64,000 bases of DNA from Candidatus Latescibacterota bacterium (lineage in GTDB: Bacteria; Latescibacterota; UBA2968). The DNA lies in assembly GCA_965116885.1 (NCBI GenBank), contig OZ220741.1:832001-896000 (forward strand), in the 5' to 3' direction. Of this stretch, positions 4,874 through 59,652 are shown one piece after another. Position 1 is the first letter of the stretch. Each line of letters opens with the position of its first letter. The translations under genes and the position numbers were made by a program. The notes beneath the pieces were generated by a model. It was not told the origin of the DNA. It saw only the letters and a program-made list of their open reading frames with translations, and searched no databases.

Positions 4874-6967
4874 ATGCTCTCAAACTTAAACCAACCCTTG
4901 CGAACTCTGCCGGGTATTGGGCTAAAACGCGAAAAAGTATTGGAAAACGCAGGCATCGCCACCGTGGGCGATCTCCTATTGTATTTGCCCTATCGGTACA
5001 TAGATCGCTCTACCGAAGTCGGCATCGCACACCTGCCGCTGGATCGAGAAGTCACCGCAGTAGGCGAAATCGTGAGCATGCAGACAATCCCCGGCAAGCG
5101 TCGGCGATTCGTCATGACAGTCGAAGACCAGACCGGATCGGTCGCCTGTACGTGGTTCGGAGGCATTCAATACCTCAAAAATTCATATCGCGCGGGCGAC
5201 ATCGTAGCACTCGGAGGCAAATTGACGCGGTTTGGGCGCACATTGCAAATGGTACACCCCGAAATAGAAGTTCTCGCAAACGAAGACGACGACAATCAGC
5301 GGCTGCATACCGGACGCATCATCCCGCTGTATTCCACCACATCAAAAATGAAAGCAGACCGCCTCACAGCCCGCGCACTTCGCCGTCTCTTATTCGCCGC
5401 GCTACAAGCTATTGGAGATCAAATCGAAGACCCATTGGACGAAAACATACGCAAACGCTGTGGCCTGATGCGCCTGCGAGACGCAATTGAAAAAATCCAT
5501 TTCCCAGACACAACAACGGACATAGACACTGCGCGGCAGCGCCTATCTTTCGACGAGATCTTCTACATCCAGCTCTATCTGGGACACGCAAAAAAGCTGC
5601 GCCAGCGCACACCCGGACGCGTACTGGCATCCAGTGGCCCCCTGACGCAACAACTCGTGGCGAATCTACCCTTCAAACTAACGCATGCACAAACGCACGC
5701 TATAGCAGAAATCGGCCATGACCTGCAGCGACCCGTAGCCATGCACCGCCTGTTACAGGGCGACGTGGGATCTGGCAAAACCCTGGTCGCCCTTCACGCC
5801 ATGTTGTGTGCCGCAGACAGCGGCGCGCAAGCCGCCTTAATGGCACCCACAGAGATCCTCGCCGAGCAGCACGCCCATACCATTCGAGAACTCGTCGCCC
5901 CACTGGGCTTAGAAATAGCATTGGTAACAGGACGCATGCGAAAAGCGCAACGCACCAAAATACTGGACGGATTGCATTCTGGAAAAATAAAAATAGCAGT
6001 CGGCACACATGCCCTATTGCAAAACGACATCGCATTTGCCGACCTCGCACTCATCGTCGTCGATGAGCAACATCGCTTTGGCGTGGTCCAGCGCGCCATG
6101 CTGCGCGAAAAAGGCAACGCGCCCCATCTTCTGGTCATGACCGCCACCCCCATACCCAGATCCCTATCGCTGACCCTGTACGGCGACCTGGATGTCACCA
6201 TCATCGACGCCCTGCCGCCTGGTCGCATCCCTGTACGCACGGGATGGCGTTATGCACAGGACCGCGCTCGCGCACTGCAATTTCTGCGCAGCGAACTGCA
6301 ACAAGGACATCAGGCATATATCGTCTATCCACTCGTCTCCGAATCCGAAAAAAGCGACCTGCAAGCCGCCACCGCCGCCTTTGAAGACCTGCAAAAAGGC
6401 GCACTCTCCAACTCCCGGTTGGGCTTGCTTCACGGACGGCTAAAACGCGACGAAAAAGAAACCACAATGTCTGCCTTCAGGCGCGGCGATCTGGATGCGC
6501 TGGTCACGACAACAGTCATAGAAGTCGGCGTCGATGTTCCCAATGCCACAGTCATGATGGTCGAACACGCCGAGCGCTTTGGACTATCGCAATTGCACCA
6601 ATTGCGCGGGCGCGTGGGCCGCGGTCAACATCAATCCTACTGTATTTTAATCGCAGACCCCCAGGAAGGGCTATCGGATGACGCACATGAACGCCTCGAC
6701 GCCATGGCGCGAACAACGGACGGATTCGAAATCTCAGAAGCCGACTTGTGCATCCGGGGACCCGGACATATTTTTGGCACCCAACAAGCCGGCTTCCCCA
6801 AATTCCACTTTGCCGACCTCGTACGCGACGGCGCCTTAATCACCGCCGCGCGTAGAGAAGTACAGACACTCCTGGACCACGACCCTAATTTGACCGCGCA
6901 CACTGTTTTGAGACGAGAATTGGACGCAACCGCACTTCACGACATGCAAATTGTGGAAGCGGGGTGA
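4874..6967 (+). CDS. recG: ATP-dependent DNA helicase RecG
   Basis: Wedge/OB N-terminus, LLQGDVGSGKT, DEQHRFG, MTATPIPRSL, QLHQLRGRVGRG, RGPG. Confidence 0.98.
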   Translation: MLSNLNQPLRTLPGIGLKREKVLENAGIATVGDLLLYLPYRYIDRSTEVGIAHLPLDREVTAVGEIVSMQTIPGKRRRFVMTVEDQTGSVACTWFGGIQYLKNSYRAGDIVALGGKLTRFGRTLQMVHPEIEVLANEDDDNQRLHTGRIIPLYSTTSKMKADRLTARALRRLLFAALQAIGDQIEDPLDENIRKRCGLMRLRDAIEKIHFPDTTTDIDTARQRLSFDEIFYIQLYLGHAKKLRQRTPGRVLASSGPLTQQLVANLPFKLTHAQTHAIAEIGHDLQRPVAMHRLLQGDVGSGKTLVALHAMLCAADSGAQAALMAPTEILAEQHAHTIRELVAPLGLEIALVTGRMRKAQRTKILDGLHSGKIKIAVGTHALLQNDIAFADLALIVVDEQHRFGVVQRAMLREKGNAPHLLVMTATPIPRSLSLTLYGDLDVTIIDALPPGRIPVRTGWRYAQDRARALQFLRSELQQGHQAYIVYPLVSESEKSDLQAATAAFEDLQKGALSNSRLGLLHGRLKRDEKETTMSAFRRGDLDALVTTTVIEVGVDVPNATVMMVEHAERFGLSQLHQLRGRVGRGQHQSYCILIADPQEGLSDDAHERLDAMARTTDGFEISEADLCIRGPGHIFGTQQAGFPKFHFADLVRDGALITAARREVQTLLDHDPNLTAHTVLRRELDATALHDMQIVEAG

Positions 6968-17805: not shown

Positions 17806-19155
17806 CTAAAACTCCCGCCACCAGTACGGATTGGACAACTCCCCCGGATAATTGGAATGCACCAATTCGTAAACCCCCGTACCCCGCCGATCTCTAAACA
17901 CAAATTCGTAGCGCCGCGCGATCTCGTAAAACCACACCTCCGAAGGCTTCTGACCCGCAGCAGAAGTCCGATAATCAATATCATCGGGCGGCCCATATTG
18001 AATATAAACCCGTCCACGGTCCGTATCCGACCCCCTTACGCCAGCCCCAAAATGCGTCTCCACATAATGCATACGCATCAAATGCTGTAACAGACGCTCA
18101 TTAGTCGGCGTATCCGGCGCGTCGTCCAACTGCTTCCAGAAAACCTTCAAAAACGCCAGCCTCGCGGGCCAACTCTCCAGCGCGTCATAAGTCCGCCGCG
18201 TCTTCTCATCGGCGACATACCGGATATCTGCATAATACCCGATCAAATCCCTCTGTACCTGCGTAAGCCCCTCGGGCAAATCTTTTGACACCAGAAAAAT
18301 GGGACGTCTCGTCTTAAAATACTGCCGACTGCTCCCATCAAACGCCTCCACCTGAAGATCATAAGTCCCCTCCCGCAAACCCTCTGTATCCAGAACCTCT
18401 GCCCTCACACAACTCTCCCCCGGCTTTAAGAACCGCTTAGCGGGATAAGTACGCACAACCACCCCCTCCGCATCGATCAGACGGTACCCCATAATAAAAC
18501 TCTCTCCCGACGACGACAAATTATACACCTCAAAATAAATCTGCAGCGGCTCTCCGATAACATAATTTCGGGTAATATTCGGCACGACCTTCCAGCCCTG
18601 CTTGACAAACCGATGCACTTCCCCGCTTCGCGCCACATGAGAAGCCAATTGCAAATCGCTGAACACCAGCCCCACACGACGCTCGTAATCCGGTATCTGA
18701 AGCGGCGCAGTACAACGTCCACTCGCCTCCGCATGGATATCCTTAATCTGCACAATCAGCCGATAAACACCCGGCTTCAAATCAAAAAAAACAGCATCCT
18801 TAAACGGCGCTCCGATCCCCACATCCAGCTCCGGTACAGCAACCTGCTGTACCCATGTCCGATGAGCCACCCGATTATCCAGCGTATCCAGCACCACAGC
18901 AACCAGAGAAATCTTCCCAACGGACTCACCCCCCTGTTCCCGCAGCTCAAGCTGACTCGCATCCAGCAACAGTGCCACCTCCTGTCGGGTATATCCCTCA
19001 GGACCTCGAAAAGCCGACAAATCCACAAAAAAACGCAGGTTGCCCACACTCTTCAAAGGCAAATCCTGCGTCTCAGTATCATCGCGAACCTGTGCTGGCA
19101 AGTCTGTTATCCAAAAACAAACGAGTATCATCGCGATGCGACTGGTCCATTTCAT
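17806..19155 (-). CDS. GWxTD-domain exported protein
   Basis: Signal peptide; C-terminal FWKQLD..PDT..NE and GSDTDRGRVYIQYGPPD (the motif W is replaced by S). Confidence 0.75.
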   Translation of the reverse strand: MKWTSRIAMILVCFWITDLPAQVRDDTETQDLPLKSVGNLRFFVDLSAFRGPEGYTRQEVALLLDASQLELREQGGESVGKISLVAVVLDTLDNRVAHRTWVQQVAVPELDVGIGAPFKDAVFFDLKPGVYRLIVQIKDIHAEASGRCTAPLQIPDYERRVGLVFSDLQLASHVARSGEVHRFVKQGWKVVPNITRNYVIGEPLQIYFEVYNLSSSGESFIMGYRLIDAEGVVVRTYPAKRFLKPGESCVRAEVLDTEGLREGTYDLQVEAFDGSSRQYFKTRRPIFLVSKDLPEGLTQVQRDLIGYYADIRYVADEKTRRTYDALESWPARLAFLKVFWKQLDDAPDTPTNERLLQHLMRMHYVETHFGAGVRGSDTDRGRVYIQYGPPDDIDYRTSAAGQKPSEVWFYEIARRYEFVFRDRRGTGVYELVHSNYPGELSNPYWWREF

Positions 19156-19198
19156 GGGTTATCCTATCGTTAAAACCCATACATTTCGGGTGCTGGAT

Positions 19199-19806
19199 TT
19201 AGCAATATTGCGCGTGGGGATCCGGTATGCTTTGGAAGCGTTGGCAGTAATCCCATAAAACAAAATCAACCATCCGTTTTTCCATATCGTATTCATTGGC
19301 AAGATACGCAACAAGTTCATCAACTGTAGTTGAGCACGCTTCAGCACAACTTTCAAGCCAAACATCTGGCTTGGCCGTGTCTTGCAAGCCAATGTTCATT
19401 GCGAGGTGATACTTCGTCACATCTCCGATCCAAGGAAGCTCTTGTAGCACATCCATACCACCTCCGCTTACCCTCGATTTGAAACCGTCAAACCCTTCCT
19501 TGGCAATCATTTTGCAGCCTTTGAGGAAGTTATCCGCTTTAAGTTTATTCTGTATGGGAAGGGCGTCTCTCTTGATCGGCTTGAGATCGGCCAGGGCGTC
19601 GAGATCGAAATTTTTGAAGACAACAGTAATCGCCGGGAACTTGGCCTTAACAATCTTATTCCTGAAGCCGCTTGCAAAAACGACCCAACAGTATTTTTCT
19701 AAAAGTCAGTCGCGCTGAGTTTATCAAAGTCGAGAAATGTCCGTGCATTAACATCAACTTTAACGCGAGCAACTTCGAACATTCTTTTAGCTTTTTCCTT
19801 GTCCAT
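19199..19806 (-). pseudogene. Frameshifted Tag/HhH-GPD-like DNA glycosylase homologue (~202 aa if repaired)
   Basis: GAGGAG RBS and ATG 19806 read MDKEKAKRMF...ATDF-stop. One extra T in the T4 run (plus-strand AAAA 19701-19704) joins it to LEKYCWVVFASGFRNKIVKAKF..., which is in frame with the 19199-19510 ORF containing LQELPWIGDVTKYHLAMNIG and KPDVWL. Confidence 0.6.
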
Positions 19807-19927
19807 AACCTGCTTACTCTCCTCAATAGCTAATGCTGTGTGGTGAAATTGTACTCCATTTGTACTCCATAGCGATTGTCTTCACTCCTGCGCCCTGCAA
19901 TTACCTTTTCGCCCAGGCTAGTGTCTT

Positions 19928-21106
19928 TTATTTTTCTTTCCCTACCGTCAACGTCACATCGGGGATCGAAGTCCTTATTTCGTACGAGGCACGCAAGTTT
20001 ATCACTTGTCGCGTGCGGTCAATCTCTGCAGCCAGGAGTTCAGCGTCGGGCAGTGTAGTTCGATACTCGGCTGGCATTACATTGTTCGTCAACCCTCCGA
20101 GCGCGTACCGGGCAACGGCTTCGTTTTTCTCCGAGCAGAGAATTAGTCCTACGGGCGGGTTTTCATCCTCGTGCGTCCAGTGTTCCCGTGCATAGTTAAG
20201 ATAGAGGTTCATTTGTCCAGCGTCGGCGTGAGTGAATTTTCCGAGTTTCAAGTCAATGACCACCAGACACCGCAGACGACGATGATAAAACAGCAAATCT
20301 ACCCGATACCACTCGTCGCCAACACGCAGACGTTTTTGCCTGCCCATGAAGCAGAAATCCCCGCCCAATTCCATAAGAAAAGTCTCCAGGTGAGAGATTA
20401 ACGCTTCTTCCAGGTCGCTTTCAGAGTATTCGTCCTTGAGATCGAGAAATTCGAGAACGAATGGATCTTTGATTTCCTCTTCGGGGAGAACGCGGTCTTC
20501 AGATTGTGCCTTCTGGCCTTTGGTCAGCATGGCGGCTTTGTTCTTTGAGAGAGCCGTGCGCTCGTAGAACTGGGAATTGATCTGCCGGTTGAGCTGGCGA
20601 ACCGACCATCCTCCGCGCAGGGCCTCGGTTTCGTAGAACTCACGGGCGTTTATATTCTTCACAGAAAGCAATCGCACATAAGCGGACCACGAAAGAGGAA
20701 AGCGTGAGGCGATACTGGCCAAAGAAGATTCCGTTGATGTCGCTGGCAGCAGATTTTCGCTGGATTCAGATTCTCCAGACAGTGTCTGGAGAATTTGCTC
20801 AGGTGGATACGATTGGTAGAACAGACGCATCTGCCAGATATTCTGACGAGAAAACCCACGACCGAATCTTTCTGTGAGATCAACGGCCAGTCTTTCAACA
20901 AGTGCAGTTCCGTATTCGGCTCTCTCCTCACCTGACTGCTCAAATTCCACGACGTGCTGCCCGATCATCCAATACGCAGCCGTCATAACAGCGTTTACTG
21001 AACGAGCAGCAGTTCGCCTCGCCTCGTCGATAATACTGGATACATCACCAAAGATGGACTGGTACTGGACCTCAAGCTCGTCAGCTTTGACCATTGGCTT
21101 TTTCAT
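19928..21106 (-). CDS. YhcG/DUF1016 PD-(D/E)XK nuclease-domain protein
   Basis: YWMIG, GFSRQNIWQMRLFY, LSWSAY, IKDPFVLEFL, VDLLFYHRRLRCLVVIDLK, GQMNLYLNY. Confidence 0.93.
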   Translation of the reverse strand: MKKPMVKADELEVQYQSIFGDVSSIIDEARRTAARSVNAVMTAAYWMIGQHVVEFEQSGEERAEYGTALVERLAVDLTERFGRGFSRQNIWQMRLFYQSYPPEQILQTLSGESESSENLLPATSTESSLASIASRFPLSWSAYVRLLSVKNINAREFYETEALRGGWSVRQLNRQINSQFYERTALSKNKAAMLTKGQKAQSEDRVLPEEEIKDPFVLEFLDLKDEYSESDLEEALISHLETFLMELGGDFCFMGRQKRLRVGDEWYRVDLLFYHRRLRCLVVIDLKLGKFTHADAGQMNLYLNYAREHWTHEDENPPVGLILCSEKNEAVARYALGGLTNNVMPAEYRTTLPDAELLAAEIDRTRQVINLRASYEIRTSIPDVTLTVGKEK

Positions 21107-21255
21107 TTCGTCGTGTCTCCATGAATGTGCTGTCGAACCGGACGAATCGCCCCATCCACTTTTTGAATATAATGATAAATGCCTATTTGCAATTTACTCG
21201 AAAAAACAGGGGGTTTCAAGGTCATTTTTGAGTATAAAGATTATTTGCAAAATTT

Positions 21256-21288
21256 AAGACCAATCAGACAATGATGCTGATTGGTCTT
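21256..21288. terminator. 12-bp perfect hairpin downstream of the CBASS/Abi-like genes, possibly a terminator
   Basis: AAGACCAATCAG-N9-CTGATTGGTCTT; the U-tract is weak. Confidence 0.45.
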
Positions 21289-21342
21289 TGTACGACAAAA
21301 TAAGGCCCTATCTCCACCTTTTACCGTAGATTTCCCTTAACT

Positions 21343-22038
21343 CTAATATGGCAGTTCAATACCTGTCTCTTTCAGCAACATTCGGCCCAGAGATGAAATA
21401 TCTATCCGAGCCTTGAACTCGCCTGCCTGCAAATCGAATGGAGGGTACTCTCCTCTTTTTACACCGTCGTATTTGCGTCGAAGGAGTCCTAGCCTGAGTA
21501 GGTTTTGCTTGCCGAGGTTATAGAGTTCCGCTCTATCTACTTCTTCCCGAGACGATCCTGAGGTAACCGGTGGTGGTTGGTCAATGTTGTCCCAAGCGTT
21601 GGAACCAAGATCCGGGTATGATTGACCGTAGGCATTGAGCAGAAGGAATTCGTCGTCATCGATTTCGCCGAACAGATCAAGTAGTCGTTTTCTTCTTATG
21701 AGGTCCACCTCATCTTCCCTCAACCCGCGAAACACGATCTCCGCAATTTTTGTAATGCGATCAGATGTTGTTGCCCGTGCCGCAAAGAATCCGCCGGATT
21801 CAATCAGATCAATTTTCTCGACGTCAGCCAAGATGTGTTCGACTTTCTCTTTTTCCAGCGTCTCAAGTCTCGCATTAAGCTGCCGAAGATACTCGACGAT
21901 GCGGTCCTGCCTCAGCCGAGGAATTGCTTCGGTAATCAGTTCGGCCAGCGGCCCACCAATGACAGGCACAAGGCTTGCCGCGGTCTTCGTGACGGATGCA
22001 ATGTTGTCACGCAAGTTTTTATCCAATTGATCAGACAT
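21343..22038 (-). CDS. Hypothetical protein, Abi-alpha/DUF4393-like
   Basis: N-terminal SLVPVIGGPLAEL, helical core with LLDLFGEIDDDEFLLL, C-terminal ISSLGRMLL; GAGG RBS. The family call is by resemblance only. Confidence 0.5.
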   Translation of the reverse strand: MSDQLDKNLRDNIASVTKTAASLVPVIGGPLAELITEAIPRLRQDRIVEYLRQLNARLETLEKEKVEHILADVEKIDLIESGGFFAARATTSDRITKIAEIVFRGLREDEVDLIRRKRLLDLFGEIDDDEFLLLNAYGQSYPDLGSNAWDNIDQPPPVTSGSSREEVDRAELYNLGKQNLLRLGLLRRKYDGVKRGEYPPFDLQAGEFKARIDISSLGRMLLKETGIELPY

Positions 22039-22215
22039 GCAAGGTCCCTCTTATTGGTCTAAATATCGACAAGAGTGCATTACTGTAATAGCCTACACTA
22101 TGGATGGTTTACAACTGGCTGTATCTCAAGCCTGTTCACCTTCTTGCGGACTCGACAAGGCAGGTATGCGTTATAGACATGGACGAAATTTTCCAAATTA
22201 GTTTCAACAAGCCAT

Positions 22216-22950
22216 TCACCGCTTAATCATTTTGTTGAGAATGCGCCGAATTTGACGTTCAAGCGGCTCAGGAATTTGTAGATTTTCCGACTTGATCATA
22301 GCAATACAAACATCAAGTACCGCAACAAAATCGTTCTGTAAGATACGTGCCGTGTGTAGCTTGTGGAGATCTCGCAGAGCTTGACCGTGGCATTTGCGGA
22401 CTTTTTTGCCGCTACCGCACGGACAGGGATGGTGCCCGCGATAACCATACTCAATAAGGAAGGCAATGACAGCCAATGCCGCTCGTTCGTCGGTCAATTC
22501 AAGAGTATCCATATAGTGCTGAACGATGCCTACTGCACCGTGTTCTGCCTCACCAAAGGGATGCGTACCATATTTCTTGTAATAGCAGTATCCGAAGAAG
22601 TACGGAATGAGGAGACGGTTTACAAATCCCAAGAGTGAGGGTTGTTGCCAGAAGATGCGGTGTTTTTCGATGGGGATTCCAAGGCATAACGTACCGTCCC
22701 CGTTCAGGTGATCATAATCGCTATCGATCTTCCCACCGGTTTCACGGACGTACGGAAGATTCTCTGGGTAAATATCGGGGATGGTGAGTTCGATTTCGAA
22801 GCACTCTACGATTGTGCTATGTCCATTAGCCGATGCCTCAAACGGCAATGGACCTGATAATATTGTCGCGTTTTCTGCTCTCGTGATTGCCGTCAGCCCA
22901 CGGTGTACACATTGCAATTCGGCAATCTCGGCAACAAGTTCTTCTTTCAT
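22216..22950 (-). CDS. CBASS-associated E2/UBC-like protein with a C-terminal SEC-C zinc motif
   Basis: IPDIYPENLP, HLNGDGTLCLG (UBC active-site-like Cys), CPCGSGKKVRKCH; ATG abuts the CD-NTase stop. Confidence 0.8.
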   Translation of the reverse strand: MKEELVAEIAELQCVHRGLTAITRAENATILSGPLPFEASANGHSTIVECFEIELTIPDIYPENLPYVRETGGKIDSDYDHLNGDGTLCLGIPIEKHRIFWQQPSLLGFVNRLLIPYFFGYCYYKKYGTHPFGEAEHGAVGIVQHYMDTLELTDERAALAVIAFLIEYGYRGHHPCPCGSGKKVRKCHGQALRDLHKLHTARILQNDFVAVLDVCIAMIKSENLQIPEPLERQIRRILNKMIKR

Positions 22951-24156
22951 TTATGCTCTCCACGGCCTCGTCGACGTCGACTTTGAGATATGGATTCTCG
23001 GAACGCTACTTTCCGCAGCCACGCCAGATGCGATCAGGTCAAAATGTTTGGAGACAACCGCCGCACCGAGCGTCGCAGAAAGCCGTTCGCGCAGAATATT
23101 GAGGTGTGGCTCTTCCAAAATATCGAAAAGGGTTTCTTTTAACGCTGCAACCCAACGAAAAAAGGCTCTTGCACGCGCATGATTATTCTCATGCCAACGA
23201 TCAGCGAAATTCTCTTTGGAATTAACCGGATTACCAATATACCACCCACCGTCGGGCATGCGTTTAATGGGACTGTGGGGTGCCAAGCTTCTGTTCACAG
23301 TTCCGTTTTCAACGAGAACTGCATGTGCATGGAGCTGAGTGACAATACTGTGGAGTGCCGAGTAGATGTCAGGCTCGTCTTGGTAGAACTGCGCGGCGAG
23401 CGTAGTGATGATGATCGAGATAGGTGCGTATTTATTGTTCTGTTCATTGTCGAACATTATATCCCGATGTCGCTTCATGAGCTGAATCGAACGCTGGAGT
23501 GGCGTGCGGACGAGCGCGTCTGGAACATCGTCAATGCTCGCATAGATATGGGAACTCTGCGCCAGAATGGCCCGCTTCTGATCGGTTCGTGCGAATTCAA
23601 ATGCTGCTTGGTTCTGGCGGTCAAACCAAAGTCCGTAGCCTTTGGGATCGCTGGCCGACCAGATATAAACATTTTCTTTTTTGTTCGTAATGGCGATGGC
23701 TGTATCGAGAAGTTGTTGGGGGTCAGGAACCGACGGTAGGACGTCAAGGTGAAATCCAATATCATCCTGTTCGGCATACTCAAGTGTCCAGCACCGTTTG
23801 CCTTCTTCATCCAGCAACTTGCGGTACGTGCCGTGTTCCTTGAGGCGATTACCAACCATCAATTTCACAGATTGGGGAGTTGTCCAATGCTTTTCTATCG
23901 GCAATTCACATACAAGATCAATGTCGTAGCTAGCTTCGATACCGTCTCTTATGGGCCTGACGACGGTGCCAAGGCGAAAGGACCCTTGTGGATAAATGCT
24001 GGGTTCACCGGCGCAACCCGGATACTCACCACCCTCAAGATATTTGCCAACAGCCTGATAGCGATCAACCGCGTCTTGATATTTGCTCGGCGGAATGTCG
24101 ATAGTTTCCGCAACCTTCTCTAAAAATCTTGAATATCTATTTTTATCAACCATCAT
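22951..24156 (-). CDS. cGAS/DncV-like nucleotidyltransferase (CD-NTase)
   Basis: YPQGSFRLGT, YDIDLV, FHLDVLP catalytic acidic triad, LMKRHRD, PISIIITTLAA, NPVN.KENFADRW. Confidence 0.93.
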   Translation of the reverse strand: MMVDKNRYSRFLEKVAETIDIPPSKYQDAVDRYQAVGKYLEGGEYPGCAGEPSIYPQGSFRLGTVVRPIRDGIEASYDIDLVCELPIEKHWTTPQSVKLMVGNRLKEHGTYRKLLDEEGKRCWTLEYAEQDDIGFHLDVLPSVPDPQQLLDTAIAITNKKENVYIWSASDPKGYGLWFDRQNQAAFEFARTDQKRAILAQSSHIYASIDDVPDALVRTPLQRSIQLMKRHRDIMFDNEQNNKYAPISIIITTLAAQFYQDEPDIYSALHSIVTQLHAHAVLVENGTVNRSLAPHSPIKRMPDGGWYIGNPVNSKENFADRWHENNHARARAFFRWVAALKETLFDILEEPHLNILRERLSATLGAAVVSKHFDLIASGVAAESSVPRIHISKSTSTRPWRA

Positions 24157-24158
24157 TA

Positions 24159-25166
24159 TTACTCCTTGTTAAGTTGGTAAACCGGCGTGAATGCATCCGC
24201 CGGCTGATCAAAGAAAACGAGATCAAGAATGGGTTGTCGGTCACGAGCTTTCGTATGGCCGAGACCTTTCAATTTTTGGATAACCCGCGTGTCGTCCATC
24301 TTGTAAGTATCCTTGGAGACGGTGTGATCGATCCGATGTATGGCAGTTCGATCGTGTTCGTCCCCGGTGAGTAATTTGGCGATGCCCATCGCACCATGCG
24401 ACTGGCCATCCATGAACAACTTTACGATATTTGTACCAAGGGTCCCGATCCCGGCCCTCTCGGGAATGGTGTAGGTCTCTGCCAGACACCCCAAGCTCAG
24501 GATGTGAAGGGAGTCTCTTGGCCAGTCTAGCACGGTTGTGGCTTCAACCGCGGCAATGCCGATCGGATTGTTCGCCCAGACCCCGCCGTCAAGGAGCCCA
24601 ACATCGTGCTGTGTGATGTGGTGTTGGAAATAGGTTGGCGCAGCGGATGTGGCAAGGGCGGCATCGACGGCCGGGGATCGATAATCATTCTTCAGACGAG
24701 GATGATGGGCTGTCTTGTAGATATAAACGCACCGCGCAACCGGATTCCAGGCAGGAACCATAAGGCGGGTCGTTGCTTCGCCAATGCGCTTGTTGCCGAA
24801 AACGTCCTGAAGTGCACTACGTAGCGCATTAGAATCGTACTTCCGTCGGTAGAGCCATTGGATACCACGAAGTTTTCTATAGGCAAAACCTTGTAGCGCG
24901 TCATGATTCTGTCCGAAGACGTCAGGCCCGCATTTTTCGTAAAGGTCAAGGAGTTTTGTGGCGGGAAGGCCCATAGCCAGTCCGATGGCGAGAATTCCGC
25001 CGGTTGATGTACCGGCGATCAGGTCGAAATACGCACCAATTGGATATTTGAGATGTTGTTCCAGTGCCGCAAGAAAGGCCGCCGGAAAGGTGCCGAGAAT
25101 ACCCCCACCGTCAATAGAGAGAATGCGGCGTTTCGGTTCTTGTTGATATTGTTTTTCCTCTATCAT
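24159..25166 (-). CDS. capV: Patatin-like phospholipase, CBASS effector (CapV-like)
   Basis: DGGGILG, GTSTG (GxSxG), TSAAPTYF, DGGVWANNP; adjacent to the CD-NTase; GAGG RBS before ATG 25166. Confidence 0.88.
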   Translation of the reverse strand: MIEEKQYQQEPKRRILSIDGGGILGTFPAAFLAALEQHLKYPIGAYFDLIAGTSTGGILAIGLAMGLPATKLLDLYEKCGPDVFGQNHDALQGFAYRKLRGIQWLYRRKYDSNALRSALQDVFGNKRIGEATTRLMVPAWNPVARCVYIYKTAHHPRLKNDYRSPAVDAALATSAAPTYFQHHITQHDVGLLDGGVWANNPIGIAAVEATTVLDWPRDSLHILSLGCLAETYTIPERAGIGTLGTNIVKLFMDGQSHGAMGIAKLLTGDEHDRTAIHRIDHTVSKDTYKMDDTRVIQKLKGLGHTKARDRQPILDLVFFDQPADAFTPVYQLNKE

Positions 25167-25291
25167 TATTTTCCTCAACAGGGTAATGCCGGTTGTTATC
25201 AAGTAAGCAGATCGCCATGGAGTTCTTCTGCACGTCGTTAATGCAACTTCGAGCATATTACCGGCAGGAATTATATTATCAGACTCTTTGC

Positions 25292-25350
25292 ATGTTAAAT
25301 GTTTTGCAACACTAAACAATTAACATAAAAAAAACGGAGACAAATGTCAA
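25292..25350 (-). promoter_or_regulatory. CBASS promoter with an overlapping operator-like inverted repeat
   Basis: Minus strand TTGACA (25350-25345), 17 nt, TATGTT (25327-25322). A 13-bp inverted repeat (25292-25304 / 25314-25326, 1 mismatch) covers the -10 and start region. Confidence 0.65.
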
Positions 25351-25528
25351 GGTCAATCATGCGTCACTCCTGTCAGTCACCGCCGACAGCCTACGGGTCC
25401 TTATTCCACTAACTTGAGGACAAGATATACAACCAAGGGTGGGATGTCTAAGATACGGTATTATCACGGATTGATAAGGCATGTATAGTCGGTTAGTCGT
25501 AGCATACTTCTTACCCGTTTTTTAATCC

Positions 25529-26197
25529 TTAATTTACATATAGATTTAACCTATCTATCATATCCCCTGTGGTATCGCGCACCAGTTGTGTCTGCTTTAA
25601 CCGAATCATCATCGCCTGTATGGACACGCCAAAAGTTTTATTGAAATTTCTAGCCACATGGTTGAGGCAGTCTTCATATTGGCTAAACCGTGTGCCCCGC
25701 TTAAACGAATAGGCTTCTTTTCCGTAATATTCACGTACTGCTTGAGCCAGAAGATTACGAGGCATTAATATACACGCAGCAGTGAAATCAGCCTGTAATT
25801 CTTCTCTTTTTTTCTTTTGGGAATCTCGGCAGATAATATTTGCGCTCGTGGTACCAAAGAAATTTATTTGATTGGGATTGGGCATAAAAAACTCTCTGTG
25901 TAGCTCCCAGTGTGCTACTTCATGAGCCGCAGTAAAATTAAATCTTCCGACTTCTCTTTCAAGGGAACTGTCAATCACGATTCGACGTTCTAAGAAGTAA
26001 ATTCCACCTAAAATATCCGAACATTCCAGTTCATCTCTAAGATTGTCAATCTCAAGAGATAATTTTAGGTGGCTTTCGATAATGTCATCTATAGGGATTG
26101 GTAGGCCCAGTTGACCCCGATCTTGTTTGTATTCAAGCAAAAGTTTTTGGGCTACTGCCTCCATCTCATCGTATGTTAAGTAAGGGACGACAACCAC
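25529..26197 (-). CDS. ImmA/IrrE-family metallopeptidase (CapP-like)
   Basis: PIPIDDI, RFNFTAAHEVAHWELH (HExxH), IICR insert, ELQADFTAACILMP, FGVSIQAMMIRL; GTG start with AGGAG RBS. Confidence 0.85.
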   Translation of the reverse strand: MVVVPYLTYDEMEAVAQKLLLEYKQDRGQLGLPIPIDDIIESHLKLSLEIDNLRDELECSDILGGIYFLERRIVIDSSLEREVGRFNFTAAHEVAHWELHREFFMPNPNQINFFGTTSANIICRDSQKKKREELQADFTAACILMPRNLLAQAVREYYGKEAYSFKRGTRFSQYEDCLNHVARNFNKTFGVSIQAMMIRLKQTQLVRDTTGDMIDRLNLYVN

Positions 26198-26215
26198 AAG
26201 TACACTCCTAAACCA

Positions 26216-26575
26216 TTATTGTTTACGCCGATTTCTTGTATCGTCTATTAACTGATCCCATTCGGTGGACGAAAGATTCTGTTGAGCAATTGTTCGCATC
26301 AATTCTGGTAACTTTTCTTTGTAAATTTTATTTTTTTTATAGGTTTCTTCGATATCGGGGTGCACCCGATGATCCACAAGACTAAAAATTTCATCTTTGT
26401 CTTTATCATAAACTTTTGCGATCTGTAAAAGTTTATCAGCTTGGGGTGAATTCTCCTTGTTATTTTCAAGTCGGCTCAGATAGGTTGCTGAAATTCCAAT
26501 CCTTTTAGCGGACTCTCGCAAACCAAGACGCAAATCAAGCCGCCACTGTTTGATAGTTTCTCCAAATGTAGCCAT
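26216..26575 (-). CDS. XRE-family HTH repressor (CapH-like)
   Basis: TFGETIKQWR...LRESAKRIGISATYLSRLENN HTH plus a ~50-aa C-terminal extension; GGAGG RBS. Confidence 0.85.
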   Translation of the reverse strand: MATFGETIKQWRLDLRLGLRESAKRIGISATYLSRLENNKENSPQADKLLQIAKVYDKDKDEIFSLVDHRVHPDIEETYKKNKIYKEKLPELMRTIAQQNLSSTEWDQLIDDTRNRRKQ

Positions 26576-26596
26576 GCTTTATCCTCCACAGCTTGC

Positions 26597-26630
26597 AGTG
26601 TAATGTAACACTAAACAAATATAAAGTCAA
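26597..26630 (-). promoter_or_regulatory. Promoter of the HTH-peptidase pair with the shared operator box
   Basis: Minus strand TTGACT (26630-26625), 17 nt, TACATT (26607-26602). Plus-strand TGTAACACTAAACAA (26604-26618) matches 25305-25319 at 14/15 positions. Confidence 0.65.
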
Positions 26631-26718
26631 GATATTTTCAGAAAAATACTGCGGATAGTGAACTTGCCGGAGTTGTTTGGCACCACAAGCACATTGAACC
26701 TCTGAAGACTGACCGAAT

Positions 26719-26848
26719 TGGACTTAATCCGTTTTAGTGGACAACTTATCTTTTTCAGAGAAAGGAGTCCACAATCACAATAAAAAGAAAAAGATCATAT
26801 CCAACAGCATTTCGTCAGCAAGTTGTGAGCTTCAAACCGCCTTGTTGA
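26719..26848 (+). mobile_element. IS3-family left-end remnant (IR plus dead OrfA N-terminus)
   Basis: TGGACTTAATCCGTTTTAGTGGACA resembles IS3-type terminal IRs (TG...TAGTGGACA). It is followed by an AAAGGAG RBS and ATC (a decayed ATG) reading TIKRKRSYPTAFRQQVV, then an early stop. Confidence 0.6.
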
Positions 26849-26987
26849 GATTCACACCGACCCTATTGACTTGTTCAAGAAAGAAATCCAAAAGATTGAT
26901 CCTCCCTGAGCCTTTAAGTCTCTGTGCACAAATTTTTTACTCGAAAACGCATTCTGGCAACGCCGCTACATCACCCGCCGCGTAGAA

Positions 26988-27836
26988 TTAAGAAATTAGA
27001 TGACCAGCCTCCTCCATCAACCGCAGCCAATCCTCATGACCGCTTGCCACCCGATCCGGGTCTATCTCACTTCTCGCAACAAAGCCCGGCACCTCCTCAC
27101 GCCCGGTTGGCAACCTGTAATCGCTATATCGAATATCCAGACTCCAGCGAATATGATCGGACGCATTGGGAAACGAGCGATGTATTGTCTTATGCTGAAT
27201 CAACGCGGCGCCCCCGGCCGGTAGCACAGACAAAACGCGATCCCCCCGCGGCAACTGATCCTCGGGAATCTCCTTCTCTGAATCCGCCGGATCGTGTGGA
27301 AGAATACCGTGCTTGTGACTCCCCGCCAAAATCTCCAGGCAGCCATTCTCCACATCCGTATCCACCAGCGGCACCCAGAAATTGACCATAAAAGTCTCCT
27401 CCACCTCCGGATCCAGAAACGCGATATCCTGATGCCACAACACCTCTTCCTCACCGGGCATCTTTGCGCGGATATTAAACTGCGGATGCACCAGAATTTC
27501 CGGCCCAATAATCGACTCCACCACATCCAGAATAGCCGGATGTGTCAGGAAAAAAAACAACCCCGCAGTCTTGTGAGCCTTGCCCAAAATCTCACCCACA
27601 AAACGCTTATCCGTCCCCAAAGCCTCGCACAAATACGCCAATCGGCACTCAAAAGGCGCGTCCTCAAAAAGACGCTCCAATTGACCCAGGGCATAAGCCT
27701 CTCTCGCCTTTTGTCCAATCACCGCATCAAACTCATCCACAAGCGGCTGATATGCCTCTGGGGGCAAACACTCGTCCAGCAACAAATACCCCTCATCCTT
27801 GTAAAAAGCAATCTGCTCACCAGTCAAACCACCCAT
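26988..27836 (-). CDS. PhyH-family dioxygenase
   Basis: LTGEQIAFYKDEGY, WHQD, WVPLVD..VENGCLEILAGSH, IHRSFPN.SDHIRWSLD. Confidence 0.9.
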   Translation of the reverse strand: MGGLTGEQIAFYKDEGYLLLDECLPPEAYQPLVDEFDAVIGQKAREAYALGQLERLFEDAPFECRLAYLCEALGTDKRFVGEILGKAHKTAGLFFFLTHPAILDVVESIIGPEILVHPQFNIRAKMPGEEEVLWHQDIAFLDPEVEETFMVNFWVPLVDTDVENGCLEILAGSHKHGILPHDPADSEKEIPEDQLPRGDRVLSVLPAGGAALIQHKTIHRSFPNASDHIRWSLDIRYSDYRLPTGREEVPGFVARSEIDPDRVASGHEDWLRLMEEAGHLIS

Positions 27837-31717: not shown

Positions 31718-32815
31718 TTAAGATGCCACCTCTTTCCATTCCAGGCGGACTTTAAGTCCATTCAACTCCCTCCAGGGAAGATGGCCTTCATGTTGAAGCC
31801 TCCCGACGACGATACCTGGGGCAATACCCTGTTCATCAGCGAATGCACAAACCACCTCCTCTTCGCACGGACAACTTGCAACAAACCGCTCCCACTCGCG
31901 CTTCGGCACCAGCCTGTTTGTCGCCCATTCATTCGCTTCAGCTTCAAGGTCTGCGATCTCACCCTGTTTCAGGCCATCAATAAATACGCTCTTCTTGCTG
32001 TGGAGAAGAACATGTGCGGCCTCGTGGAACAGGCTGAACCACAAATGGTCGTCTGTCTTATAGCGTGCGCTCAACTGGATTATAGCCTTCCGGGGGGAAA
32101 GCCACCACGCTGCCCCGCTAAGGGCTGTTCTCGATAGGGGCTTAATCAGGGCCAGGGCAACACCAGCTTGATTGCAGAGTTGTTGTGCGTCGGATAGCCC
32201 TTTTTCTATCGGTACTCGCGTCAGTTTGCGAATTTCTTGCAACGCCAGCTTAAAACGCATCTCATTGTAGTCGGCGCAATCCTGTTGTTCTGCATCAAGC
32301 TCTCCGAGTCGGAGCCATGTTGCCAGCGCAATCTCATCGCTCTTAAAACTCGGCGAATGTCGATATGCCACATTCGCCAAACTATACTTCATGTGCCAAG
32401 CCTTAATCGAACCGATGCCGAAAAATGAGAGCAACCCAGATACAGACTCCACATCTGACTTCGACTTGCGAAGAACACCCCGTTTCACGAGTTCATTAAC
32501 CGGAAATTGTTTCAACCACTCAGCAGATTTGGCGGCTTCTGCCGCCTCGGATTCTCGGGCGCATTGAAGGCGATAGTCGGTCTCAATGCCGAGCCATAAG
32601 CTCGCATCAACGCCCAGCACCCTTTCAAACTGTAATGCCGTCGCTGGCTCAAGGGAGGCTTTCCCAGAGATAATCTCGCTGATCAGCTTCGGAGAGCGCC
32701 CACACCGCCGCGCAAACTCGGCCTGGGATATACCTTGCGCTTCCAAACGTTCCTCCAAAACCCAGCCCGGCGGGACCGCATAGTCCGGACGGTACTCATT
32801 AGTCTCCACTGCCAT
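31718..32815 (-). CDS. HigA-type HTH antitoxin fused to an ImmA/IrrE peptidase domain
   Basis: PPGWVLEERL..SQAEFARR HTH; WFSLFHEAAHVLLH; EAEANEWA. Confidence 0.88.
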   Translation of the reverse strand: MAVETNEYRPDYAVPPGWVLEERLEAQGISQAEFARRCGRSPKLISEIISGKASLEPATALQFERVLGVDASLWLGIETDYRLQCARESEAAEAAKSAEWLKQFPVNELVKRGVLRKSKSDVESVSGLLSFFGIGSIKAWHMKYSLANVAYRHSPSFKSDEIALATWLRLGELDAEQQDCADYNEMRFKLALQEIRKLTRVPIEKGLSDAQQLCNQAGVALALIKPLSRTALSGAAWWLSPRKAIIQLSARYKTDDHLWFSLFHEAAHVLLHSKKSVFIDGLKQGEIADLEAEANEWATNRLVPKREWERFVASCPCEEEVVCAFADEQGIAPGIVVGRLQHEGHLPWRELNGLKVRLEWKEVAS

Positions 32816-32829
32816 TTCTCGCTCCTTGT

Positions 32830-33165
32830 TCAGTGGTAGTCGATCACCTCAATGATCGTGATTGCACTCACTTTCTTTGCATCTATTCCTCCATCCTCCT
32901 TCCGTGGTATAGGATTGTGATCAGGCTTAAAAATTAGCCGATAGGGATAGACAAGATTAACGGCATATTGCTCGTCGCGGTCTCCCTGAAGTTGGTGCCG
33001 CCGATCTGGCGGAGTCGTGGGCACCTGCTCTAATGTCTCGGCGGCCTTTAGAATAGCAAGGCGGCTCATTATCACCTTCGCCATGCGAGATCCATAAGTC
33101 CTTTGGAGTAAACGAGAGGAGTTAAAAATTCTCGCGATCTTACTTGTTCGAAAGGTGATGTCCAA
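32830..33165 (-). CDS. HigB-like (RelE superfamily, plasmid-maintenance killer) toxin
   Basis: HQLQGDR..YAVNL..PYRLIF, C-terminal IDYH; sits upstream of the HigA-like gene. Confidence 0.88.
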   Translation of the reverse strand: MDITFRTSKIARIFNSSRLLQRTYGSRMAKVIMSRLAILKAAETLEQVPTTPPDRRHQLQGDRDEQYAVNLVYPYRLIFKPDHNPIPRKEDGGIDAKKVSAITIIEVIDYH

Positions 33166-58829: not shown

Positions 58830-59180
58830 CTATCGTGTGATATACCTGGGACGATTGACGGCTTCTGCGACCTGAATATGTGCGCTATGTCCAATTTTTG
58901 GCCGAACGACAATATCGATGTCACGGTCTAATGCCCGCAAGAAAGACAACAGACGCTCGATAGAAAATCCGGCTAATCGTCCATTCTTAAGTGCAGAGAC
59001 TTTGGGTTGGTCAATACCGAGAACACCTGCGGCTTTTTTTTGCGTCCAACCCTTTTGTCCAATGATTTTATTAATTTGAATTGCCAAATCTGATTTTGCC
59101 AATTCTTCTTCTGGACGGTCAAATCCCAGGTCCTTGAATACGTTGCCCGACCCGACTGTGTAGTCTGCTTTTTCGCTCAT
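58830..59180 (-). CDS. XRE-family HTH antitoxin
   Basis: GSGNVFKDLG, TQKKAAGVLGIDQPKVSAL..G....FSIERL. Confidence 0.9.
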   Translation of the reverse strand: MSEKADYTVGSGNVFKDLGFDRPEEELAKSDLAIQINKIIGQKGWTQKKAAGVLGIDQPKVSALKNGRLAGFSIERLLSFLRALDRDIDIVVRPKIGHSAHIQVAEAVNRPRYITR

Positions 59181-59536
59181 GTTTTATTTTCCTTTGCAAT
59201 TTGTTCTGCCATTTTCAAACGTCTTTTTATCGTATCCAGATCGCGTTTTGTTGTTGCAATACCGCGTTTTGATTTTTTTTGAAAGACATGCAAGACATAG
59301 ATGTTGTCGTCAATTTTTATTGCATAAACTGCTCGATAAGTGTTTGTTGCATAATCGCTGACAATTTCAATGACGCCAGAAAAGCCCTTTAACGTCTTTG
59401 CTTTATGAGACCTTTCTCCAACTTCCTCCATGTGAAGCGCGTGTCCAATTTCTCGTCTCACTGCACCAGGAAGTTTCCGCAGGTCTCTTAGCGATGAACC
59501 GATCCAGATAATGGATCTTTGGAGTTTTGCATCCAT
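59177..59536 (-). CDS. RelE/ParE-superfamily toxin (Gp49/DUF891-like)
   Basis: WIGSSLRDL, TYRAVY, IYVLHVFQKKSKRG; overlaps the antitoxin start. Confidence 0.9.
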   Translation of the reverse strand: MDAKLQRSIIWIGSSLRDLRKLPGAVRREIGHALHMEEVGERSHKAKTLKGFSGVIEIVSDYATNTYRAVYAIKIDDNIYVLHVFQKKSKRGIATTKRDLDTIKRRLKMAEQIAKENKT

Positions 59537-59652
59537 AATAGATAATATGCTAAATTTAGTATATTTTTGCAAGTGGACTTGACCTGTTTTGGTGGTTACC
59601 TTATTAGTATTCTTAATTTTCAATTTCTAATTAGCATTCTCAGGAGGCATTA

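Follow-up and report, generated by a model that had tools for sequence, protein, structure and literature searches.

A short, GAF-less CapH/CapP-like gene pair and its putative twofold operator in front of an E2-only CBASS of a Candidatus Latescibacterota bacterium

A cyclic oligonucleotide-based anti-phage signalling system (CBASS) that lies behind a repressor and peptidase gene pair raises the question of whether the pair controls it, and by what kind of switch. Such an arrangement is found in a 64,000-nucleotide stretch of a Candidatus Latescibacterota genome (contig OZ220741.1, positions 832,001 to 896,000; hereafter the window), in which five open reading frames (ORFs) on the minus strand within 22216–26575 encode a helix-turn-helix (HTH) protein, an HExxH peptidase, a patatin, a nucleotidyltransferase of the cGAS/DncV-like kind (CD-NTase) and an E2-like/SEC-C protein; the first three genes are hereafter called capH, capP and capV. 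An initial annotation of the same DNA had described this gene content, order and strand, and all five ORFs are indeed present as it listed them. It interpreted the locus as a damage-inducible, E1-independent CBASS under a co-directional CapH/CapP-like switch. The analyses below point to a three-gene E2-only CBASS (capV, cdnG-like, E2/SEC-C) under a short, GAF-less, ImmA-type relative of CapH/CapP that would act through a duplicated operator, a reading which, together with the mechanism proposed for it, is considered likely.

The connection between the gene pair and the CBASS genes is seen in the DNA between and before them. The best direct repeat in 25100–26760 is a 23-nt box located at 26599–26621 (box 1) and 25300–25322 (box 2), the two copies being identical at 19 of 23 positions. 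Its 12-mer core, TTGTTTAGTGTT, occurs in only two places in the 64 kb compared with 0.18 expected, and one of 100 shuffled sequences reached two. Both boxes read AGTGT-N6-ACACT/ACATT, and palindromic half-sites of this kind are as expected for a dimeric HTH protein. Box 1, with the half-sites AGTGT-N6-ACACT, extends over the 3′ portion of the spacer together with the −10 element of a promoter-like site before capH (−35 TTGACT at 26630–26625, a 17-nt spacer, −10 TACATT at 26607–26602). Box 2 lies in the spacer that separates the capP stop (25529) from the patatin ATG (25166), between two promoter-like sites at 25350..25322 (TTGACA-17-TATGTT) and 25298..25270 (TTAACA-17-TATAAT), the second of which has 11 of 12 consensus matches. 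The box is positioned 3 nt past the −10 of the first site and abuts the −35 of the second, and it forms the centre of a palindrome with 18-nt arms (25287–25304 and 25314–25331).

The spacer is 362 nt long, and the five genes therefore do not form one tightly coupled unit. The capH stop and the capP GTG start are 18 nt apart. The tight coupling of patatin, CD-NTase and E2 described in the initial annotation is confirmed by the junction sequences: only the two bases TA separate the patatin stop TAA from the CD-NTase ATG, a 2-nt gap, and the CD-NTase stop TAA directly abuts the E2 ATG, a 0-nt gap. The longest patatin ORF spans 24159–25319 and begins with a TTG that falls within the operator box. 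This start is not credible because of that position and because the profile alignments begin late; those of PADLOC start at residues 58–61 of the TTG-started ORF, and that of NCBIfam sets in at residue 14 of the 335-aa form. As judged from these alignments, the true start is likely to be the ATG at 25166, with a GAGG located 7 nt upstream of it.

A profile scan of contigs with the peptidase alignment returned 80 related loci, the best of them 39% identical; the window's own genome is absent from this set. An HTH homologue is encoded directly upstream of the peptidase and on the same strand in 32 of the 80. In L007 (a Desulfatiglandales metagenome-assembled genome, MAG) and L014 (Geobacter argillaceus), the top direct repeat pairs the region upstream of capH with a site just past capP, as in the window, and has the same core, GTTTAGTGTT. 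The box is present at the same offset upstream of capH in L001, L005, L007, L014 and L016, and just past the capP stop in L002, L003, L005, L007–L014, L016, L022 and L024. Matches to the operator 10-mer with at most one mismatch lie on the coding strand at +703..+756 from the start of the peptidase match in eight loci and at −414..−473 in four. An operator profile constructed from 15 sites gave 22 hits at E ≤ 5, seven of which had not been used for training; four of these seven fall at the same two offsets (L012 +709, L008 +716, L002 +715 and L016 −422) and the other three in L051. The half-sites covary and stay palindromic, as illustrated by ACCGTTCACTGAACGGT in L002 versus ACTGTTCACTGAACAGT in L022. 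They are spaced by N7 in most loci and by N6 in both copies of the window.

These recurrences provide good comparative evidence that a single operator is used twice per locus, presumably for autoregulation and for control of the cargo. Since the conserved box recurs at the promoter of capH and again in the stretch from capP to the cargo, repression of the CBASS by the HTH protein through this box is well supported and judged quite probable. The capH-side boxes of the other loci have TTGAC(A/T) 10–11 nt upstream; at their cargo-side boxes no convincing sigma-70 −35/−10 pair was found by eye. The three boxes in L051, a Bradymonadales MAG, are located at 6499, 8498 and 10028 (+), approximately 1.5–2 kb apart, which suggests a small regulon. 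A further shared element is a run of T. In the window, eight T residues (25331–25338) lie about 9–11 nt upstream of box 2, and a run of seven or eight T, often ending in G, is found about 9 nt upstream of the cargo-side box in L003, L005, L007, L009, L010 and L014. The run resembles the tail of a terminator after capP. In L009 and L005 it follows a GC hairpin; the window, L007 and L014 have no such hairpin, their z-scores being +0.8, −0.6 and +0.5, respectively.

The genes that follow the pair were examined in 30 loci from ranks 1–36 (L013, L021, L025, L029, L031, L035 and everything from L037 onward being left out), with ORFs from a crude greedy caller, a PADLOC run on 116 of those downstream, Pfam on 56 of the 116 and an all-against-all BLAST. 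Cargo confirmed by homology or PADLOC lies downstream on the same strand in 19 of these loci. In L004, L034 and L036 the caller places the first downstream ORFs on the opposite strand, and the remaining eight loci carry same-strand ORFs of mixed or unassigned kind. Because 19 of 30 loci have confirmed same-strand cargo, this layout is, on the sequence evidence, the rule in the short regulator subfamily. The initial annotation had called the co-directional layout unusual. It is unusual compared with published CapH/CapP systems and normal within the short subfamily. That the published pairs are divergent, as the annotation also stated, agrees with the original report: of 408 pairs associated with CBASS, the 'vast majority' are encoded upstream and on the strand opposite to the operon, as is every FlaGs example (bioRxiv 10.1101/2022.04.27.489752).

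CBASS genes are the same-strand cargo in two of the 30 loci. L014 encodes a CD-NTase recognised by the same PADLOC model as that of the window (PDLC00780), a short E2 and a patatin; L007 encodes a CD-NTase and a two-transmembrane (2TM) effector. The first gene past the operator in both loci, before the CD-NTase, encodes a basic protein of 56–57 aa (L007 8753–8923, +; L014 8754–8927, +) that is 75% identical between the two and is also found in L077 (7117–7263, −); it matches no Pfam family and has no counterpart in the window. Recurrent same-strand proteins without a Pfam or PADLOC match are present in 17 of the 30 loci. The commonest cargo is a same-strand two-gene cassette directly after the box (for example L012 8745–9929 and 9919–10890), observed in L002, L005, L008, L009, L011, L012, L015–L018, L022–L024 and L033. 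Its first protein (~400 aa) occurs in 14 of the 30 loci and its second (~320–410 aa) in nine, with a variant in three; neither has a Pfam or PADLOC match. In the Atlas, the first protein resembles clusters labelled 'hypothetical', and viral members make up half of two of its three best look-alikes. The cassette is a candidate for a new defence or mobile-element function. An alternative gene pair serves as cargo in L003 and L027, and L010 has a member of the second-gene family behind an unmatched first ORF.

On another reading the HTH/peptidase pair would be an independent module, either a toxin–antitoxin (TA)-like Xre/COG2856 pair or a remnant of mobile-element immunity, that adjoins the CBASS without controlling it. 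Related pairs mostly adjoin other cargo, with CBASS in just the two loci described above, temperate phages encode relatives of the peptidase in their lysogeny regions, and the look-alike clusters of the commonest cargo family are half viral. The locus is also part of a low-GC island at ~19.2–27.0 kb that contains several unrelated defence-type genes, the G+C content being lowered to 0.39–0.52 over 19–27 kb compared with ~0.54 in adjoining housekeeping genes. Against an independent module stand the duplication of the operator box in front of capV and the same duplication in two other CBASS loci. Moreover, no integrase, recombinase or tRNA gene was found in or beside the island, whose flanks are ordinary chromosomal genes for a GWxTD protein, PhyH dioxygenases and a sulfatase. 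Mere adjacency of this kind is regarded as very unlikely.

The peptidase is matched by the capP model of PADLOC (5.7e-18), limited to profile positions 12–150 of 242, and by Pfam Peptidase_M78. The active-site motif is HEVAH, with the catalytic residues H92, E93, H96 and E133. In the family alignment (A1, 61 sequences) R85, H92, E93, H96, H100 and E133 are invariant and Cys123 is kept in at least 90% of sequences; 122 of 150 representatives have HExxH followed by C[RK] within 15–45 residues. An AlphaFold2 model of high confidence (pLDDT 92, pTM 0.87) contains the peptidase domain, in which C123 is borne on a strand (residues 120–124) between the HExxH helix and the E133 helix. From this placement Cys123 may act as a cysteine switch. 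No GAF domain is present in the peptidase: past residue 146 the model consists of helices and two 3-residue strands, and the 222-aa protein ends 89 residues after the third zinc ligand, E133, which leaves no room for such a domain.

This short form is typical of the family. A full HMMER scan of 1.84 billion representatives gave 1743 relatives at E ≤ 0.001, and the best 150 of them have a median length of 235.5 aa, 139 being at most 260 aa and two at least 280 aa. Close relatives of the window's regulator (P0002–P0014, 76–92% identical) come only from ENA, Logan and NCBI contigs. Foldseek ranks Thauera CapP (7t5t) as the best structural match of the peptidase (E 7.2e-6, TMq 0.53), followed by PprI/IrrE (8sln, 3dti), and the A1 profile aligns with 7t5t at 4.8e-13 over residues 86–152 only. 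Alignments with the peptidases of 29 temperate-phage records extend over ~90% of the length at 24–29% identity; one of these records is annotated 'ImmA/IrrE family metallo-endopeptidase'. On the basis of the absent GAF domain and the full-length likeness to phage ImmA/IrrE-family peptidases, the protein is classified by sequence as ImmA-sized and CapP-related, outside the CapP family proper. The CapH/CapP pair of the initial annotation is accordingly retained as a related HTH/Zn-peptidase pair in front of a CBASS, with a peptidase that is not a canonical, GAF-containing CapP.

According to a recent report, the characterised CapP has 288 aa divided into peptidase (1–141), HTH (142–182) and GAF (182–288) parts and binds single-stranded DNA (ssDNA) in a groove between peptidase and GAF via R90, W196, Y264 and W280; mutating these four DNA-contacting residues weakened ssDNA binding, and ssDNA is thought to move the cysteine-switch loop off the zinc (bioRxiv 10.64898/2026.05.16.725639). 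W196, Y264 and W280 have no counterpart in the window peptidase, and only R85 (equivalent to R90) is kept. One could nevertheless regard the pair as a canonical CapH/CapP switch, merely flipped to the same strand, which would respond to damage-derived ssDNA in just the way of its E. coli MS115-1 counterpart. PADLOC labels both proteins capH and capP, CapP 7t5t is the best structural match, and R85 and the loop cysteine are conserved. The GAF-formed groove of the 288-aa CapP is missing here, however, the likeness to CapP ends at about residue 152, and the lengths of the 150 representatives are those of a short family. Layout and operator position are likewise unlike the published system, whose divergent promoter is shared and has the site upstream of its −35. 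A canonical switch in reversed orientation is thus thought to be quite unlikely.

It follows from the missing ssDNA groove that the damage induction proposed in the initial annotation is an extrapolation. What speaks for a DNA-damage signal is family resemblance, and by analogy alone DNA damage or ssDNA is a somewhat doubtful candidate for the signal. ImmA-type peptidases respond through RecA or RapI, according to the CapH/CapP report (bioRxiv 10.1101/2022.04.27.489752).

The presumed target of the peptidase is the HTH protein, which is matched by the PADLOC models capH (3.1e-8) and HTH_VI (2.4e-10) and, with its N-terminal HTH, by Pfam HTH_3. In an alignment of 29 sequences A2, G5, R12, R20, E37 and R94 are invariant. 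R94 lies in the C-terminal part and is preceded by Leu or Met (ELM-R in the window). CapH is cleaved between F82 and R83 (bioRxiv 10.64898/2026.05.16.725639) and DdrO between L106 and R107 (PMC6868357); by analogy, the HTH protein would most likely be cleaved in front of Arg94. A model of the peptidase–HTH complex scored a median of 0.81 over three runs, compared with 0.00 for the best of three controls. Among solved complexes 116 of 157 attain that mark, and among mismatched pairs 2 of 215 do; the model was built with custom alignments and a riding zinc ion, and this calibration is therefore only rough. The three runs share 100% of their contacts, and the partner pLDDT is at least 79. The model supports binding of the HTH protein by the peptidase, with residues 37–52 and 77–86 of the peptidase (including 77, 80 and 86) predicted to contact repressor HTH residues 13–40. 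That the peptidase acts on the HTH protein is judged reasonably likely.

The predicted interface also raises the alternative that the peptidase is a non-cleaving anti-repressor, which would derepress the CBASS by masking the DNA-binding face of the HTH protein or blocking its oligomerisation. The interface is confident, includes the invariant R20 and E37, and lies away from the active site, and the scissile region outside the active site leaves room for sequestration of this kind. Two modes, cleavage or a block of oligomerisation that leaves the repressor uncut, appear to be in use among COG2856/XRE pairs (PMC6868357). The HExxH motif, E133 and the loop cysteine are nevertheless invariant or nearly so, which argues for regulated catalysis, and the invariant hydrophobic-Arg motif of the HTH protein fits the known cleavage sites. 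A purely sequestering peptidase is considered unlikely.

The operon under this putative control is a CBASS of a known kind. PADLOC run on the locus recognises a phospholipase effector, a cyclase, an E2, capH and capP. The patatin matches the phospholipase effector model of PADLOC (8.2e-99) and Pfam Patatin (1.9e-28), and it passes the NCBIfam equivalog NF041079, 'CBASS cGAMP-activated phospholipase', with 240.8 bits compared with a cut-off of 200. It contains the catalytic motifs DGGG, GTSTG and DGG. Encoded in the operon of a CD-NTase, it is predicted from sequence to be an effector activated by a cyclic nucleotide. The CD-NTase matches the PADLOC cyclase model PDLC00780 (3.1e-118) and Pfam DncV-like NTFase. 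In an alignment of 121 sequences, the window protein and 120 homologues, each of the active-site residues G58-S59, D78-x-D80 and D138 is kept in at least 98%, and these residues align with QGSFRLGT, YDLDM and FHMD of 9woo. The closest solved structures in a PDB sequence search are 9woo (3.8e-47), SmCdnG 8hsb (5.5e-30) and 7ljn (3.4e-13), the last being BdCdnG according to PMC12948482. Because its nearest solved relatives are CdnG enzymes including 7ljn, the CD-NTase is called CdnG-like, an assignment by nearest solved relatives rather than by a clade tree. Among 8000 candidates scored, 6822 are homologues of it at E ≤ 1e-10.

The E2 protein is matched by PADLOC PDLC00871 (5.6e-82) over profile positions 4–238 of 241, and so the full-length 244-aa E2/SEC-C form is already modelled. 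The Pfam SEC-C match falls slightly below the cut-off (19.4 versus 20.4 bits); SEC-C peptides match the C-terminal region at 3.8e-4. The protein has 337 homologous clusters at E ≤ 1e-5. In 44 aligned sequences H81 (H81-x-N) and the catalytic Cys89 are invariant, in the HxN...C arrangement of ubiquitin-conjugating (UBC) enzymes, and so are the zinc ligands of the SEC-C knuckle, C176, C178, C187 and H188. In the AlphaFold2 model (pLDDT 91.9), whose top Foldseek matches are UFC1 and the TSG101 UEV over ~130 columns (a modest match, E 2.6e-3, probability 1.00), the ~110 residues beyond the UBC fold form a helical extension with the SEC-C zinc knuckle. The intact catalytic motifs reported initially are thus present in patatin, CD-NTase and E2 alike.

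The absence of an E1 or JAB gene also stands: PADLOC and Pfam gave no match to either in the E2 protein or in any neighbour scanned over 7141–40962, and the top PADLOC matches of the E2 protein are to E2-only models. A stand-alone UBC-fold E2 with its catalytic Cys beside a CD-NTase, without E1 or JAB, places the locus by gene content in the E2-only or 'type II short' class, also called E2-CBASS, as the initial annotation had done. E2-CBASS is reported in 616 genomes and is mostly of clade G (PMC12948482). With the matches in PADLOC, Pfam and NCBIfam, the earlier reading of patatin plus CD-NTase as CBASS is upheld, and the CBASS identity of the locus is virtually certain. The core is an ordinary E2-only CBASS of known kind; each of its three families has many members and an existing PADLOC model.

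The chemistry of the E2 is less easily transferred from known examples. In PMC12948482, a covalent, E1-independent CD-NTase–E2 adduct is demonstrated for SmCdnG–SmE2 only, and a highly conserved C-terminal glycine links SmCdnG to SmE2. The CD-NTase subfamily of the window has no such conserved glycine among the 120 homologues. Its nearest invariant glycine is G364 (L363 is also invariant), and the conserved tail is P-x-IHI...K-P-W-R-A, with P398 and W399 invariant and the window protein ending ...TRPWRA. The C-terminal 40 codons (22951–23070) of the window gene carry a 2-residue insertion common only to its three closest relatives (91–93% identical). The window E2 showed no detectable BLASTP similarity to the 154-aa short E2 of Geobacter argillaceus L014, and PADLOC assigns the two to different E2 models. 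Because SmE2 belongs to another, short E2 subfamily and the CD-NTase has no conserved terminal glycine, E1-independent conjugation by the window's E2 subfamily is an extrapolation by analogy, and the E1-independence claimed in the initial annotation is unsupported as stated. The missing glycine bears on the chemistry of this CD-NTase subfamily, not on the type, which is defined by gene content.

A plasmid search with the E2 gave distant matches only (27–32% identity, nine records). Among plasmids, that of Haliscomenobacter hydrossis (NC_015512.1, 3817–5651) carries the same CD-NTase and E2/SEC-C pair with a 4-nt overlap. RefSeq labels the two just 'nucleotidyltransferase' and 'SEC-C metal-binding domain-containing protein', and the annotation shows no patatin close by. 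As reported in PMC12991175, phage prohead proteases can activate clade G CD-NTases by cutting a surface loop.

The following mechanism would account for the locus. A dimer of the HTH protein would bind the palindromic box AGTGT-N6-ACACT/ACATT, present twice. At box 1, over the −10 of its own promoter, binding would result in autoregulation, and at box 2, between the promoter-like sites before capV, it would repress the CBASS. On a signal, the peptidase would bind and inactivate the HTH protein, most likely by cutting before Arg94, and CBASS expression would go up. The E2 would hold the CD-NTase in check or prime it. During infection the CD-NTase would make a cGAMP-type (cyclic GMP-AMP) signal that turns the phospholipase active, leading to membrane damage and abortive infection.

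Several observations weigh against this scheme, in which we infer the repression, the cleavage, what kind of signal is read, which nucleotide is made and how the E2 works chemically. The operator 10-mer is not enriched overall, with 40 matches in the 1.10 Mb of the 80 loci compared with 29–59 in 20 shuffles; as the count is not enriched, the evidence from the 10-mer lies in position alone. Both window boxes are weak against the family profile (E 4.4 and 4.8, 19 and 16 of 26 positions), which is attributed to the right half-site being 1 nt closer (N6 versus N7). The terminator scan predicted no minus-strand terminator after capP, so that read-through from the capH promoter into the CBASS genes is possible. 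The complex model leaves the C-terminal tail of the repressor, with the scissile region, outside the active site and offers no cleavage-competent pose. The peptidase itself, as described above, has neither the GAF domain nor the aromatic DNA contacts of CapP. In canonical CapH/CapP, capP is unnecessary for protection against phage lambda according to bioRxiv 10.1101/2022.04.27.489752, and defence here may therefore not depend on the switch even if it works. At the level of the CD-NTase, only 12 of the 120 homologues end in Gly, compared with 36 that end in Ala, 19 in Glu and 17 in Val.

Beyond this locus, the pair can be taken more boldly as a member of an undescribed and widespread branch of 'Cap' regulators. 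These would be GAF-less, ImmA-sized and encoded on the strand of their cargo, with the operator A[G/C]TGT-N6/7-ACA[C/G]T at their own and the cargo promoters. They would sense a signal other than free ssDNA, for example RecA filaments or a phage product, and would serve interchangeable cargo, most commonly the two-gene cassette, possibly a new defence system, and CBASS in this genome and two further phyla. In the same vein, the long E2/SEC-C subfamily may engage its CD-NTase via the C-terminal ...KPW tail instead of a terminal glycine. This wider proposal is put forward tentatively and, taken whole, is thought rather improbable.

The coordinates of the locus are compiled in Table 1. Several genes nearby are set apart from the system. 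The 231-aa gene downstream (21343–22038, −), which begins 177 nt from the E2 stop and has no PADLOC, Pfam or NCBIfam match, was considered as a part of the CBASS and excluded. Its Atlas look-alikes are hypothetical, one cluster having Abi_alpha on 25% of members, and it may be a separate abortive-infection gene. OGG is an accessory of CBASS type IV. A stop-to-stop frame at 19199–19705 (−) matches PADLOC OGG (PDLC00910, 7.6e-29) over profile positions 46–206 of 215. With the first ~45 profile positions absent and stop codons upstream, this frame is a truncated, DNA-glycosylase-like remnant at the island edge, and it was rejected as a type IV accessory gene. The island also encodes a YhcG/DUF1016 PD-(D/E)xK nuclease (19928–21106, −; Pfam YhcG_C, 3.2e-58) that matches the PADLOC candidate system PDC-S02 (8.2e-140); a YhcG homologue lies upstream of the regulator pair in L030. 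No Rfam match was found at E ≤ 0.1 across 19000–27100, and thus no known RNA element in the leaders. Farther away, at 31718–33165 (−), a second HTH and M78 peptidase are fused in one 365-aa protein that adjoins a HigB-like toxin gene. It resembles fused CapH-CapP or RmrA-type proteins, the PADLOC models of which matched the locus proteins weakly. Gp49/DUF891 (HigB-like) and HTH_37 genes at 58830–59623 (−), in a local G+C dip (0.434 at 59–60 kb), are likely to be a toxin–antitoxin pair.

Table 1. Features of the regulator–CBASS locus in the window, listed from the upstream end of the minus-strand genes.
Feature	Coordinates	Strand	Remarks
capH-like promoter and operator box 1	26599–26630	−	promoter scan, direct-repeat search
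capH-like XRE/HTH repressor	26216–26575	−	119 aa; PADLOC capH, Pfam HTH_3
Short capP-like (ImmA-type) M78 Zn-metallopeptidase	25529–26197	−	222 aa, GTG start; PADLOC capP, Pfam Peptidase_M78
Regulatory spacer before the CBASS genes	25167–25528	−	362 nt; two promoter-like sites and operator box 2
CapV-type patatin phospholipase effector	24159–25166	−	335 aa from ATG; PADLOC, Pfam, NCBIfam
CD-NTase, CdnG-like	22951–24156	−	401 aa; PADLOC PDLC00780, Pfam DncV-like NTFase
E2-like/SEC-C protein	22216–22950	−	244 aa; PADLOC PDLC00871

The E2-only class and the CapH/CapP principle are already established, and the orientation once called unusual is a subfamily trait. In the literature searched, with subscription papers and supplements outside its range, no description was found of a GAF-less or same-strand CapH/CapP variant or of such an operator. 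The interest that remains lies in the minimal regulator with a searchable operator, its signal, the ...KPW tail of the CD-NTase and the two-gene cargo of many relatives. If the proposed reading is correct, CapH/CapP-like control of abortive-infection operons also exists as a minimal same-strand form without the known ssDNA sensor domain, and the operator sequence of this short form can be searched directly in genomes. The pair offers a testable system for the signal read by a GAF-less M78 peptidase and for whether the repressor is cleaved or merely sequestered, and the unannotated two-gene cargo is a candidate for function discovery. The PADLOC label 'capP' and the RefSeq label 'SEC-C metal-binding domain-containing protein' mask features that are relevant to mechanism.

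Among known systems, E2-CBASS of Serratia marcescens (SmCdnG–SmE2, PMC12948482) shares with the window a CD-NTase of the CdnG kind directly beside a stand-alone E2 with a catalytic Cys and without E1 or JAB. The window CD-NTase is long (401 aa), as reported for E2-CBASS. The differences are that the window E2, at 244 aa, carries a helical extension and a SEC-C knuckle whereas SmE2 is an 18-kDa protein, and that the CD-NTase subfamily ends in ...KPWRA in contrast to the conserved glycine. The effector in the window is a patatin, encoded first in the operon.

For the regulator, one of the closest described systems is CapH/CapP of E. coli MS115-1 and Thauera sp. K11, which likewise consists of an XRE-type HTH repressor and an M78 Zn-metallopeptidase before a CBASS, with the HExxH...E active site, the loop cysteine, the Arg equivalent to R90 and the C-terminal hydrophobic-Arg motif of the repressor. 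The window pair differs in its 222-aa peptidase without GAF compared with 288 aa, in lying on the same strand as its cargo rather than divergently, and in two operator copies, at its own and the cargo promoter, in place of a single site that lies in a shared promoter region, upstream of its −35. The cysteine-switch loop is found in 33% of published CapP, and the window protein has C123. DdrO/IrrE (PprI) of Deinococcus has the same peptidase fold (8sln, 3dti), and its repressor is also cut before an Arg (PMC6868357); IrrE carries HTH and GAF domains and governs a chromosomal DNA-repair regulon. ImmR/ImmA of ICEBs1 and phage phi105, together with the phage ImmA/IrrE-family peptidases, resemble the window pair in the overall size and GAF-less architecture of the peptidase and in having the repressor gene before the peptidase gene on one strand. 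Their cargo consists of excision or lytic genes, whereas that of the window is a defence operon with no integrase or mobile-element gene nearby.

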